NCBI RefSeq assembly: GCF_003334315.1
Contig: NZ_QOWR01000011.1
Source: Escherichia coli
GTDB lineage: Bacteria; Pseudomonadota; Gammaproteobacteria; Enterobacterales; Enterobacteriaceae
Direction: 5' to 3' (one strand)
DNA length: 64,000 bases
The position numbers were made by a program, and so were the translations under genes. Positions 1 to 4,570 of this stretch are shown here, in pieces (positions within the stretch are counted from its first letter, which is position 1; each line of letters opens with the position of its first letter). Under the pieces are notes generated by a model. That model was not told where the DNA came from and did not search any database. It worked only from the letters and a program-made list of their open reading frames with translations.

Positions 1-62
1 TTTTTCGTCTTGCGACGTTAAGAATCCGTATCTTCGAGTGCCCACACAGATTGTCTGATAAA

Positions 63-74
63 TTGTTAAAGAGC
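63..74 (-). promoter_or_regulatory. rrn leader boxA antitermination element (reverse complement reads GCTCTTTAACAA)
   Basis: Reverse complement of window 1-260 matches the canonical rrn P1-P2-leader sequence recalled from rrnB; boxA motif read directly. Confidence 0.75.
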
Positions 75-99
75 AGTGCCGCTTCGCTTTTTCTCAGCG

Positions 100-145
100 G
101 CGCGGGGTGTGCATAATACGCTTTCCCGCTACAGAGTCAAGCATT
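100..145 (-). promoter_or_regulatory. rrnC: rRNA operon P2 promoter (-35 TTGACT about 135-140, -10 TATTAT about 113-118), transcribing leftward out of the window
   Basis: Minus-strand sequence TTGACTCTGTAGCGGGAAAGCGTATTATGCACACC matches the rrn P2 promoter; operon identity inferred from adjacency to yieP. Confidence 0.8.
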
Positions 146-222
146 TATTTTTGCTTTCTCTGCCGGAGTTCTCAGGAGAACCCCGCTGACCCGGCGGCGT
201 GTTTGCCGTTGTTCCGTGTCAG

Positions 223-330
223 TGGTGGCGCATTATAGGGAGTTATTCCGGCCTGACAAGAGGAAATTTAAAATAATTTTCTGACCGCGCATTTTTTCAG
301 CAAAAGCCCCGTTAATGTGCCATAAAACAA
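223..330 (-). promoter_or_regulatory. rrnC: rRNA operon P1 promoter (-35 TTGTCA 254-259, -10 TATAAT 232-237, TSS near 223) with AT-rich UP element and upstream activating region
   Basis: Minus strand reads CCTCTTGTCAGGCCGGAATAACTCCCTATAATGCGCCACCACTGACACGG, the canonical rrn P1; AT-rich UP element directly upstream. Confidence 0.85.
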
Positions 331-411
331 GCAATTTGCCGTTTTTGCAACCGTAATCACACTTCCTGGTGGCATACTAAGGAGGAATAAAAAGAAAAAG
401 GAAGATTAGTA

Positions 412-1104
412 ATGCCTTTAAGCGCACAACAGTTAGCTGCACAGAAAAACCTTTCGTATGTTCTGGCTGAGAAGCTGGCGCAACGCATCTTAAAAGGTGA
501 ATATGAACCCGGCACCATTTTGCCTGGTGAGATTGAGCTGGGCGAGCAATTTGGAGTGAGTCGTACAGCGGTACGCGAAGCGGTCAAAACGTTAACGGCA
601 AAAGGGATGGTTTTACCGCGACCGCGAATTGGTACCCGGGTCATGCCACAATCAAACTGGAATTTTCTTGATCAGGAATTGCTTACCTGGTGGATGACAG
701 AAGAGAACTTTCATCAGGTCATCGATCACTTTCTGGTTATGCGTATCTGTCTGGAGCCGCAAGCTTGCCTACTGGCTGCAACGGTTGGCACCGCGGAACA
801 GAAGGCGCATCTCAATACGTTAATGGCCGAAATGGCGGCATTAAAAGAGAACTTTCGCCGTGAACGCTGGATCGAAGTCGATATGGCCTGGCATGAGCAT
901 ATCTATGAAATGAGCGCCAATCCGTTTTTGACCTCATTCGCCTCGCTATTCCATTCGGTTTATCACACTTACTTCACGTCAATTACCAGCGACACAGTGA
1001 TAAAGCTGGATCTGCACCAGGCGATTGTCGATGCGATTGTCCAAAGCGATGGCGACGCGGCATTTAAAGCTTGTCAGGCGCTGCTACGCTCACCTGATAA
1101 GTGA
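412..1104 (+). CDS. yieP: GntR/FadR-family transcriptional regulator YieP
   Basis: 230-aa ORF with N-terminal winged-HTH signature (GEQFGVSRTAVREAVKTL); length and position next to rrnC and hsrA match K-12. Confidence 0.9.
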   Translation: MPLSAQQLAAQKNLSYVLAEKLAQRILKGEYEPGTILPGEIELGEQFGVSRTAVREAVKTLTAKGMVLPRPRIGTRVMPQSNWNFLDQELLTWWMTEENFHQVIDHFLVMRICLEPQACLLAATVGTAEQKAHLNTLMAEMAALKENFRRERWIEVDMAWHEHIYEMSANPFLTSFASLFHSVYHTYFTSITSDTVIKLDLHQAIVDAIVQSDGDAAFKACQALLRSPDK

Positions 1105-1126
1105 CAACCCGATAACAGGACATTGA

Positions 1127-2554
1127 ATGAGCGATAAAAAGAAGCGCAGTATGGCGGGTTTGCCGTGGATCGCGGCGATGGCCTTCTTCATGCAGGCACT
1201 TGATGCCACTATTCTGAATACCGCCTTACCCGCAATCGCTCATAGCCTTAATCGTTCTCCTCTCGCGATGCAATCAGCCATCATCAGTTATACGCTGACG
1301 GTGGCGATGCTTATTCCGGTAAGCGGATGGCTAGCCGATCGCTTCGGTACGCGTCGCATTTTTACCCTTGCCGTGAGTCTGTTCACATTGGGTTCTCTGG
1401 CCTGCGCACTTTCTAATTCGCTACCACAGCTGGTTGTCTTCCGGGTTATTCAGGGGATAGGCGGCGCAATGATGATGCCTGTTGCTCGGCTGGCCTTACT
1501 GCGCGCTTATCCTCGTAATGAACTTCTTCCAGTATTGAATTTTGTCGCCATGCCGGGTCTGGTGGGGCCAATTTTAGGCCCCGTTCTTGGCGGCGTGCTG
1601 GTCACCTGGGCAACCTGGCACTGGATATTTTTAATCAATATCCCCATAGGTATTGCGGGCCTTCTTTACGCGCGCAAACATATGCCCAATTTCACCACCG
1701 CACGACGCAGATTCGATATCACTGGCTTTTTGCTGTTTGGCCTCAGCCTTGTTCTCTTCTCAAGCGGAATAGAGCTATTCGGGGAAAAGATTGTCGCCAG
1801 CTGGATTGCCTTGACGGTAATTGTCACCAGCATCGGGTTACTGCTTCTCTATATTCTCCATGCGCGACACACGCCAAACCCATTAATTTCATTAGATTTA
1901 TTTAAAACCCGCACTTTCTCAATCGGTATCGTAGGCAATATTGCAACCCGTCTGGGGACCGGTTGTGTACCGTTCCTTATGCCATTGATGTTACAGGTAG
2001 GATTTGGTTATCAGGCGTTTATTGCCGGCTGTATGATGGCACCGACAGCGTTAGGTTCCATTATTGCAAAATCGATGGTTACCCAAGTCTTACGTCGTCT
2101 GGGCTATCGCCATACGTTAGTGGGGATCACGGTGATTATTGGGCTAATGATCGCTCAGTTCTCTTTGCAATCACCGGCAATGGCGATATGGATGCTGATC
2201 TTGCCGTTGTTTATATTAGGGATGGCTATGTCGACGCAATTTACCGCGATGAATACCATCACACTTGCCGATCTGACCGATGACAACGCCAGCAGCGGTA
2301 ACAGTGTTCTGGCGGTCACGCAGCAACTGTCGATTAGTTTAGGCGTTGCTGTAAGTGCGGCCGTCCTTCGCGTTTATGAAGGGATGGAAGGCACAACGAC
2401 TGTCGAACAATTCCACTATACGTTTATCACGATGGGCATTATTACTGTTGCTTCAGCAGCAATGTTCATGCTTCTGAAAACAACCGATGGTAATAATTTG
2501 ATCAAAAGACAGCGTAAATCTAAGCCGAACCGCGTTCCATCAGAATCGGAGTAA
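1127..2554 (+). CDS. hsrA: MFS transporter HsrA (YieO), putative drug efflux
   Basis: 475-aa hydrophobic multi-TM ORF with MFS motifs; 3' end overlaps rbsR convergently. Confidence 0.88.
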
Positions 2555-3512
2555 GTTGTAATCGTTGTTGCTGAAGGGTCGGCTGGGTTATCCGATGGAT
2601 GAGTACATCAATCGCCAGCTCCCCCAGTTCATCTTTCGGTTGGTGGATAGTGGTTAATGGTGGCGTCATAAAGCTTGCCAGTTCGATATCGTCATAGCCA
2701 ATCACCGCGATATCCTGCGGAACCTGTAACTCTGCCTGATATAACGCCTGGTAAACGCCAACAGCCATAGCGTCATTTCCGGTAAAGACGGCCTGAGGAC
2801 GCAGCGGATGTGATAACAGTTGGCGCATGGCGTCAAACCCGCCGTTAAATTCAAAATCACCAGTGACTTCATAGCCATCAGGAATGTTGAGACCCGCACG
2901 TTTCATCGCCGCCCGATAACCTTCCAACCGCAGGCGCGCCGGAGTTTTATCCAGCGGACCGGTAATACAGGCGATACGGGTATGACCTTTATCGATCAGA
3001 TATTGCGTTGCTAAGTCTCCGCCCAGCAACGAGTTATCCTGAATAAGATCGCTGTCGCCATCGAACGGAGCCCAGTCCATCATCACAGTAGGCACTGTCG
3101 GATAACGTTGCATGATTTCACGCGAAGGTTGATGCGTTTCGGTGCACAGTAACAGCAAACCATCAACGCGTTTTTGCATCAGCGTTTCCAGATTGCGATT
3201 CATCCGCTGTTCATCGCCTTCGGTATTGCAAAGGACGAGACTATAACCGCGTTCGAAGCAGCTGCGTTCAACGCCACGCACCAGTTCTGAATAGAAAGGA
3301 TTGGTACTGGCAGTGATCAACATGCCAATGGTATGTGTTTGATTGAGTTTGAGGCTACGCGCCAGGGCTGATGGCGCGTAATTGAGTTCTTTAATCGCCG
3401 CTTCAACTTTGGCGGTAATCGCTTCACTGACGAAGCGATCTTTATTGATAACGTGAGAAACTGTTGAGGTAGAAACGCCCGCCAGGCGGGCAACATCTTT
3501 CATTGTAGCCAA
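2520..3512 (-). CDS. rbsR: Ribose operon repressor RbsR (LacI/GalR family)
   Basis: 330-aa ORF starting [24 protein letters not shown] (LacI-type HTH); last gene of rbs operon. Confidence 0.95.
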
Positions 3513-3515
3513 GCG

Positions 3516-4445
3516 TCACCTCTGCCTGTCTAAAAATGCGTCGATCTCTTCACGCCACGGTACGGAAGGTTGTGCGCCTTTACGTGTTACGGCAATCGCA
3601 GCGGCAGCATGGGCAAACCGAATCGCCTCTGGCAATGGTTTTTCTTCCAGCAACGCCGTGATTAACGCGCCGTTAAAGGTATCTCCGGCAGCAATGGTAT
3701 CGACAGCCTGCACCCGGAATCCAGGAACGCGCTGACCTTCACCATTCACGCTAGCCCATACACCACGACTTCCTAAAGTAATCAGTACAGTACGGATACC
3801 TTTTTCATGCAGTACCTGCGCCGCCTTCGCTGCATCTTCATCATTTTCAACACGAATACCGGTGAGCTTTTCTGCTTCCGTTTCGTTTGGCGTAATAATG
3901 TCCACCAGCGCCAGCAGTTCGTCAGGAAGTTCGCGAGCCGGAGCCGGGTTAAGCGCAACGATAGTCTTATTTTGATGGGCGATTTTCGCCGCTGCCATCA
4001 CACTTTCGAGTGGTGATTCCAGCTGCATTAATAATGCTGACGCGTTGGCAATACGCTCACGTTGCGCTTCCACCAGCGCCGGGGAAAGGGCAGCATTAGC
4101 GCCGGCATGAATACCGATGACATTCTCACCTTCGCCATTAACAAAAATCAGCGCCACACCTGTTGATTCGCCTTTGATCACGCTGACCGGAGTAATATCA
4201 ATGTTATCAGTGGCGAGCTGCTGGCGAACGCTCTCACCAATGCTGTCATCACCCGTACAGGCAATAAACGCGATATTCGCACCGCTACGCCCAGCAGCCA
4301 CAGCCTGATTCGCGCCTTTGCCGCCAAATGCAACCTGATAGTGGTTACCGGTTACGGTTTCGCCTGGAGTAGGAAAAGATTGAAGATTAAGAATGTGGTC
4401 AGCATTAATGCTGCCAAGAACAACGAGGCTGCCTGCGTTTTGCAT
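3516..4445 (-). CDS. rbsK: Ribokinase
   Basis: ORF matches RbsK; start trimmed to MQNAGSLVVLGSINADHIL giving 309 aa. Confidence 0.93.
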   Translation of the reverse strand: MQNAGSLVVLGSINADHILNLQSFPTPGETVTGNHYQVAFGGKGANQAVAAGRSGANIAFIACTGDDSIGESVRQQLATDNIDITPVSVIKGESTGVALIFVNGEGENVIGIHAGANAALSPALVEAQRERIANASALLMQLESPLESVMAAAKIAHQNKTIVALNPAPARELPDELLALVDIITPNETEAEKLTGIRVENDEDAAKAAQVLHEKGIRTVLITLGSRGVWASVNGEGQRVPGFRVQAVDTIAAGDTFNGALITALLEEKPLPEAIRFAHAAAAIAVTRKGAQPSVPWREEIDAFLDRQR

Positions 4446-4570
4446 ATTCGGGATGTCCATAAAATGCGCCACCGTGTTAGGGTGGCGCGTGCCCTGCTTT
4501 TCTTTATATTACACGTTCATCTGTCGATGACGTATTTATGTCACCATCAGGTCATACAACCTGATTAAAA

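Follow-up and report, generated by a model that had tools for sequence, protein, structure and literature searches.

The 64,000-nucleotide stretch of Escherichia coli DNA considered here (the window) opens, on its minus strand, with what appears to be the leader of a ribosomal RNA (rrn) operon, placed back to back with the regulator gene yieP. Three questions follow from this arrangement: which of the seven rrn operons leaves the window at its left edge, whether the rRNA genes do lie just beyond that edge, and how the promoters of an rRNA operon and of a regulator gene share the short stretch between them. The answer to the first question is almost certain, in that positions 1-420, read on the minus strand, represent the rrnC control region of E. 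coli, exiting at the left edge and divergent to the yieP promoter. The back-to-back layout of the rrnC promoter-leader and yieP is already known and is textbook material, and few bacterial control elements have been studied as thoroughly as rrn P1, P2, and boxA. What is mildly new here is a quantified, family-wide conservation of the rrn P1/yieP arrangement, of its spacing, and of two Fis-like sequence blocks among the Enterobacteriaceae sampled.

Identity of the operon and its left flank

Alignment with complete genomes gives the clearest view of what the window holds. Positions 1-420 (minus strand) align without gaps to rrnC of strain MG1655, with two mismatches, and to rrnC of E. coli W, with a single mismatch, and this gap-free near-identity to both operons settles the matter against a chance origin of the P1, P2, and boxA motifs. 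Compared over 25 kb, the closest complete genome belongs to strain ET76, which differs at two positions across 1-1243 (168 and 181), both of them in the P1-P2 spacer. When a 1,200-base query was compared with complete E. coli genomes, matches were obtained in all of them (5,426 of 5,426), at a median of seven places per genome because of the seven rrn copies; in each genome, one place matched over the full length of the query, extending over yieP and mdtD/hsrA.

The rrn portion by itself is unable to separate rrnC from rrnA or rrnB, because the window is identical to MG1655 rrnA and rrnB from the leader to approximately -69/-75 of P1 (window ~292-297) and becomes operon-specific farther upstream. 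The locus is rrnC because of its unique flank, which bears out the operon name used in the preliminary description of this DNA. That flank consists of yieP (412..1104, plus strand; ORF list and annotation of identical loci), encoding a FadR/GntR-family regulator of 230 aa, followed by hsrA/mdtD (1127-2554), rbsR (2520-3512, minus strand), and rbsK (minus strand), the last three taken from the ORF list; the four ORFs together span 412-4472. In addition, an oriC-type 13-mer, GATCTATTTATTT, occurs at 15983-15995 on the minus strand and places the replication origin region within the window, ~16 kb from rrnC. This position agrees with the published distance of ~16 kb between rrnC and oriC (PMC5110994).

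The same locus and gene order are found in MG1655, where rrnC comprises rrsC-gltU-rrlC-rrfC-aspT-trpT with a divergent yieP-hsrA, and the 480-bp rrsC-yieP intergenic region of that strain has the same length as at the window locus, with no indels. The two SNPs that distinguish the window from MG1655 within 1-420 lie at positions 85 and 407. At position 85, in the boxB loop, the odd base is that of K-12 rrnC, and W shares the base of the window. At position 407, which is +23 of the yieP 5' UTR, a T is present in the window, W, and ET76, and an A in K-12; this position lies between the Shine-Dalgarno sequence and the start codon, and pairing of FnrS has been reported for this translation initiation region. 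The lineage of the window is thus non-K-12 and closest to strain ET76. As a separate observation on the flank, the rbs operon beside yieP-mdtD is disrupted in E. coli W (L001:9520-10453), where partial rbsR-like and rbsC pseudogenes occur without rbsK or rbsB; the rbsR and rbsK ORFs of the window are intact.

With the operon identified, expectations for the sequence beyond the left edge become specific. An rrn operon of any kind implies AAATTGAAGAGTTTGATC ~70 nt beyond position 1, and a canonical rrnC in the source strain implies AAATTGAAGAGTTTGATCATGGCTCAG from 70 nt to the left of position 1. Inspection of three genomes (W, MG1655, and ET76) consistently placed the 5' end of mature 16S rRNA 70 bp to the left of the point matching position 1, well inside the ~200 bp within which the preliminary description had expected a 16S gene to begin. 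Farther left in each of the three, the 16S gene is followed by tRNA-Glu, 23S, 5S, tRNA-Asp, tRNA-Trp, and then hdfR, which is the composition of rrnC, and ET76 has ...TGAATACC...AAATTGAAGAGTTTGATCATG to the left of the matching point. On a larger scale, the junction was searched with a query that joined the 480-bp intergenic region to 389 nt of the 16S gene on one side and to 332 nt of yieP on the other, and was counted if one place covered at least 80% of it. By this measure, 16S, leader, and yieP form an unbroken junction in 99.3% of complete E. coli genomes (5,386 of 5,426), and the remaining 40 lack a contiguous one. While the flank of the source genome itself lies outside the window, this frequency makes the absence of a 16S gene within ~200 bp very unlikely in the source strain, and the earlier placement of the 16S-23S-5S genes just past the left edge is well supported.

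Promoters and leader elements on the minus strand

A consensus scan of positions 1-700 returned two sigma-70-type sites in all, each of them on the minus strand, against 0.6 +/- 0.9 sites in the shuffled region. The upstream one, rrnC P1 (core at 259..232), combines a -35 element TTGTCA (259..254), a 16-bp spacer, and a -10 element TATAAT (237..232), for 11 of 12 consensus matches. Its core is identical to that of MG1655 rrnB and rrnA P1, and both hexamers are invariant in 57 distinct enterobacterial sequences. The -10 element is followed by a GC-rich discriminator, GCGC at 231..228, which opens the stretch GCGCCACC at 231..224; in the form TATAATGCGCC, the discriminator is invariant in all seven rrn operons of MG1655. 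Transcription from P1 presumably starts at A223, a position taken over by identity with rrnB P1, in which the start lies 9 nt past the -10 hexamer. The leader transcribed from this start occupies 1..223 (minus strand), representing the first 223 of its 292 nt, with the last 69 nt and the 16S gene beyond the left edge. Upstream of the -35 element, an A+T-rich UP element, AGAAAATTATTTTAAATTTCC, extends over approximately 263..283 (-40 to -60; minus strand) and is identical to the rrnB P1 UP region; binding of the RNA polymerase alpha C-terminal domain would be expected, and a role for UP elements at rrn promoters has been described (PMC4696680).

The second site, rrnC P2 (core at 140..113, minus strand), consists of a -35 element TTGACT (140..135), a 16-bp spacer, and a -10 element TATTAT (118..113), with 10 of 12 consensus matches, and is identical to rrnB P2 save for one base of the spacer. 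Its start falls at ~103-106, and the -10 elements of P1 and P2 are 119 bp apart. Both the spacing of the two promoters, ~120 bp, and the general organization of P1, P2, UP element, and Fis sites at rrn promoters have been described previously (PMC4696680). A 43-aa ORF on the plus strand at 107-238, antisense to the leader, was also encountered in this segment and was treated as chance.

In rrn operons generally, the UP element and Fis drive P1, its discriminator keeps it in check through ppGpp/DksA and iNTP control, and P2 provides basal expression. By analogy, transcription of the operon in the window would start at a strong, growth-rate-regulated P1 with near-consensus -35 and -10 elements, a 16-bp spacer, a GC-rich discriminator, an UP element, and upstream Fis sites, and a second start would occur at a basal P2 ~120 bp downstream.

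Downstream of P2, three leader elements can be recognized on the minus strand. A boxB-type hairpin (GCCGCU...AGCGGC) occupies 78..101, where the centroid fold pairs 101-96 with 83-78 in a 6-bp, GC-rich stem. Its fold energy (z = -1.19) is not better than that of shuffled sequences, and because the fold is weak on its own, the boxB assignment follows from identity with the rrnB leader. An exact match to boxA, TGCTCTTTAACAA, is present at 75..63, in a block (63..75) that is invariant across the seven MG1655 rrn leaders, and boxA was recovered by exact search in other genera wherever the contig extends far enough. Finally, a UG-rich, boxC-like element, TGTGTGGG, lies at 41..48, likewise in a block invariant in all seven MG1655 operons; this element is taken to be boxC and to lie in the part of the leader from which the RNase III processing stem of 16S is formed.

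The boxB, boxA, and boxC elements of rrn leaders serve to recruit a Nus-factor complex that renders RNA polymerase antitermination-proficient, and part of the rrn leader enters an RNase III processing stem. The nascent leader encoded here would accordingly be predicted to assemble a Nus-factor antitermination complex on its boxB, boxA, and boxC elements and to contribute a portion to the RNase III stem, with mature 16S rRNA beginning ~70 nt past position 1. A scan of the whole 64-kb window at Rfam gathering thresholds returned no family for the leader; its matches were limited to the sRNA STnc410 at 26298-26455 (-), with 188 bits, and AsdA, an antisense RNA of the dnaA mRNA, at 58524-58604 (-), with 102 bits.

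The canonical P1, P2, and boxA elements that the preliminary description had read on the minus strand are therefore all present, as judged by the promoter scan, by reading of the sequence, and by the rrnC alignment, and the window belongs to the rrn P1/P2/boxA family by all features accessible to sequence analysis. A comparison with rrnB is instructive in this regard. From ~-69 of P1 through boxC, the rrnB P1-P2 leader is base-for-base the same as the window, apart from one or two SNPs. The two operons differ in what lies upstream: rrnB is preceded by the co-directional murI, whereas rrnC is preceded by a divergent yieP promoter 162 bp away.

The yieP promoter and the conserved spacer

The preliminary description had placed the yieP promoter in the same short divergent region and had proposed mapping of its start site as a check. 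Such a mapping was in fact already published: in 2024, template-switching 5' RACE in K-12 located the yieP start 27 nt upstream of the ATG (PMC11340327). Since the window and MG1655 align without indels, the coordinate is transferable and corresponds to ~G385 (+/-1) of the window, 162 bp from the rrnC P1 start. The resulting 5' UTR of 27 nt (385..411, plus strand), with a Shine-Dalgarno sequence AAGGAAG at 398-404, is supported by 5' RACE and by FnrS genetics (PMC11340327).

A generic -35/-10 scan of positions 1-700 detected no plus-strand promoter for yieP, and the reason is to be found in its architecture, an extended -10 promoter without a -35 element. The candidate element lies at 370..378 on the plus strand, 7 nt upstream of the published start, and reads TGg followed by CATACT (TGGCATACT), with no recognizable -35 hexamer; its role as the yieP promoter is putative. 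From this element, the yieP-hsrA operon would be transcribed in the direction opposite to rrnC. The published start together with the invariance of TGGCATACT supports the placement of the promoter within the shared region. The related claim that the distance from the P1 upstream region to the yieP start is under 150 bp holds in part. Measured from the distal edge of the UP element (~283), there are 129 bp to the ATG at 412 and 102 bp to the start at ~385, which agrees with the claim; measured from the -35 element (259), there are 153 bp to the ATG, which does not.

The extent to which this arrangement is conserved was examined with 80 yieP loci drawn from one-genome-per-species assemblies that span Escherichia, Citrobacter, Salmonella, Enterobacter, Leclercia, Lelliottia, Kosakonia, Klebsiella, Raoultella, Trabulsiella, Yokenella, Pluralibacter, Atlantibacter, and others. 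The yieP -10 element reads TGGCATACT in 76 of the 80 loci and TGGCATAAT in the other 4, such that TGGCATA[C/A]T is found in 80 of 80, and the -10 block is invariant in an 18-genus alignment. Across ~20 enterobacterial genera, a divergent rrn P1 is present in every yieP locus with at least 200 nt of upstream sequence (57 of 57). Exact search located TATAATGCGCC in 56 of these 57, at 170-177 nt from the ATG, and the remaining locus (L056) carries the variant TATACTGCGCC at the matching place. The distance between the -10 elements of rrn P1 and yieP is 131-133 bp in all 58 sequences. Two non-consensus bases of TGGCATACT deserve mention, since they too are kept: C373 in 57 of 57 and C377 in 56 of 57 distinct sequences from ~20 genera. 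Their retention suggests that selection has favoured either low promoter strength or a binding site that overlaps the element.

Most of the draft contigs stop 110-600 bp upstream of yieP, which is the signature of a repeated rrn operon, and the same repeat explains assembly breaks just to the left of windows such as this one. In longer contigs, boxA and then the 5' end of 16S occur at the expected distances. Among non-E. coli loci with long upstream sequence, Rfam identified a minus-strand 16S gene in five of five, with its 5' end 458-491 nt upstream of yieP in four. The fifth, from a draft of Trabulsiella odontotermitis (L075), has its 16S 5' end ~558 nt upstream of yieP by Rfam. In this draft, the 16S 5'-end motif occurs twice, 97 bp apart (L075:1066-1190), and the Rfam match is ~100 nt longer than the model span; the doubled motif is due either to an artefact of the assembly or to duplication of a short segment at the 5' end of 16S. 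Another unusual locus consists of a whole contig of 756 bp labelled Marinomonas sp. TW1 (L028), whose YieP is 89% identical to the E. coli protein, and this contig most likely reflects enterobacterial contamination of the Marinomonas assembly.

Between the two promoters, candidate Fis sites were called by a G-N13-C scan, which is a crude and unspecific heuristic. Two 15-mers stand out by their conservation. The first, Fis-like site I (GCGCATTTTTTCAGC, 287..301), is centred at -71 of rrnC P1 and -91 of the yieP start and straddles the end of the seven-copy rrn repeat; G287, T293-T297, and C301 are invariant in 57 of 57 sequences, and positions 288-291 and 300 vary. The second (GCCGTTTTTGCAACC, 338..352) has its midpoint at -122 relative to rrnC P1 and at -40 relative to the yieP start; G338 and C352 are each retained in 56 of 57 sequences and G341 and T342 in 55 of 57, around a T-rich centre. 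A third candidate 15-mer, at 306-320 (-90), was dropped after proving not to be conserved across genera. The same scan applied to rrnB returned 15-mers at -71, -102, and -143, plus a few extra matches. These three positions are those of the rrnB Fis sites, and the extra matches fall outside them. Site I therefore occupies the same position in rrnC and rrnB, while the conserved rrnC 15-mers at -71 and -122 depart from the rrnB set of -71, -102, and -143 in the region upstream of -69, where rrnC is operon-specific.

The primary Fis footprinting paper covering all seven rrn P1 promoters is reportedly that of Hirvonen 2001. For each rrn P1, including that of rrnC, three to five Fis sites have been proposed (PMC4696680). 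Gel shifts with a 500-bp rrnC promoter fragment covering this region also detected Fis binding sites, in agreement with the earlier count (PMC4696680). Taken together with their conservation and position, the two 15-mers at 287-301 and 338-352 are probably Fis sites, as we infer from the sequence.

The geometry of the spacer is notable in that the second block spans -33 to -47 of the yieP promoter, i.e., its -35 region, and the yieP core promoter in turn occupies -127 to -162 of rrnC P1. An overlap of rrn upstream activating sequences with yieP regulatory sequences, which the preliminary description had considered probable, is therefore well supported in geometric terms, with the conserved -122 block covering the yieP -35 region; functional cross-talk between the two promoters is hypothetical. 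Both the Fis-dependent activating region of rrnC P1 and the control of yieP, including positive autoregulation by YieP, have to be accommodated in the ~100 bp that separate the UP element from the yieP -10. As far as alignments can tell, the whole P1-yieP spacer is under constraint.

YieP has been shown to activate its own transcription, and a ChIP signal was reported upstream of yieP (PMC11340327). A scan with the published YieP palindrome, atTTGTaTGAcaAAT, gave no convincing operator in 260-411, where the best match scored 17 of 25, a level reached 63 times in the window. The -10 sequence TGGCATACT was likewise rejected as a YieP half-site, as only 8 of 15 positions match sdaC site 2. Elsewhere, the best match to the YieP consensus in the 64-kb window lies within the rrn leader at 49-63 (GATTGTCTGATAAAT), with a crude weighted score of 21 of 25, and is the sole site scoring at least 21. 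It reads ATTTATCAGACAATC on the rrn strand, directly 3' of boxA, is invariant in the seven MG1655 rrn leaders, and sits ~330 bp upstream of the yieP start. This match could be due to chance, or it could be the source of the YieP ChIP signal attributed to the region upstream of yieP.

Alternative readings and possible coupling of the two promoters

Two other accounts of this region merit consideration, one concerning the conserved blocks and the other the body of the operon. It is conceivable, though rather unlikely, that 287-301 and 338-352 are operators of YieP or of another regulator of yieP-hsrA instead of rrn activating sites, and that the two promoters are mere neighbours in a crowded intergenic region. 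The self-activation by YieP and its ChIP signal would fit such operators, and 338-352 in particular, at -33 to -47 of the yieP start, occupies a typical activator position and could be a YieP or other operator. The low specificity of the Fis heuristic and the departure of the conserved rrnC sites from the -102 and -143 positions of rrnB point the same way. However, neither block resembles the YieP palindrome, as the modest scores obtained in 260-411 indicate, and 287-301 coincides in position with the site I 15-mer of rrnB and displays a Fis-type pattern of invariant G/C ends, an A/T tract, and free flanks. The gel shifts, which reported Fis sites on a fragment including this region, also argue for Fis.

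The identification of the operon body faces a different alternative, namely that recombination between rrn copies (inversion, a hybrid operon, or deletion) has joined the rrnC promoter and leader to the body of another rrn operon or has removed the rRNA genes. Because the leader and P1 are identical in rrnA, rrnB, and rrnC up to -69/-75, an exchange between copies would leave no mark in the window. At 168 and 181, moreover, the window carries the base of MG1655 rrnA, rrnB, and rrnC, unlike ET76, which is compatible with gene conversion among rrn leaders. The number of matching places ranges from 5 to 17 per E. coli genome, the 40 genomes mentioned above have no contiguous junction, and strain W3110 is listed with an rrnD-rrnE inversion (PMC4696680, strain table). 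Against this stand the contiguity of 16S and yieP in nearly all complete genomes and the full, canonical rrnC, with its tRNA-Glu, tRNA-Asp, and tRNA-Trp genes, in W, MG1655, and the near-identical ET76, and such a rearrangement in the source strain is accordingly highly improbable.

Whether rrnC P1 and the yieP promoter go beyond adjacency and form one conserved regulatory unit, through shared Fis sites, P1-generated supercoiling, and a YieP input to rrnC, is doubtful at present, and several means of coupling can nonetheless be envisioned. The two promoters may share their Fis sites, as -71 and -122 of P1 equate to -91 and -40 of yieP. Growth rate could also come to bear on yieP-hsrA expression by way of the negative supercoiling that a very active P1 produces. 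Conversely, rrnC might receive an input that none of the other six operons has, from YieP occupying the DNA upstream of yieP, and the YieP-like sequence in the rrn leader (49-63) is another place where YieP might bind. Such coupling would fit the conserved distance of 131-133 bp between the -10 elements in ~20 genera, and also the non-consensus bases that TGGCATACT keeps unchanged, but neither of these demonstrates it.

The arrangement resembles that of back-to-back divergent promoters with a shared activator region, in that the starts are 162 bp apart on opposite strands, conserved blocks resembling protein-binding sites lie between them, and the spacing varies by no more than 1 bp either way among genera. 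Unlike such shared-activator pairs, the functional link between rrnC P1 and yieP is one that we infer, by way of shared Fis sites or transcription-driven supercoiling. The pair is also an uneven one, with rrnC P1 among the strongest promoters in the cell and its yieP partner a weak extended -10 promoter. In the literature accessible to this study, no test was found of the 15-mers as Fis sites or of a mutual influence between yieP and P1.

As a discovery, the region carries little weight; its value is in annotation of the window, which it identifies as E. coli DNA of known orientation, mapped to rrnC, ~16 kb from oriC. Across the Enterobacteriaceae sampled, the conservation of this divergent arrangement means that shared control of one rRNA operon and a GntR-type regulator would be easy to test.
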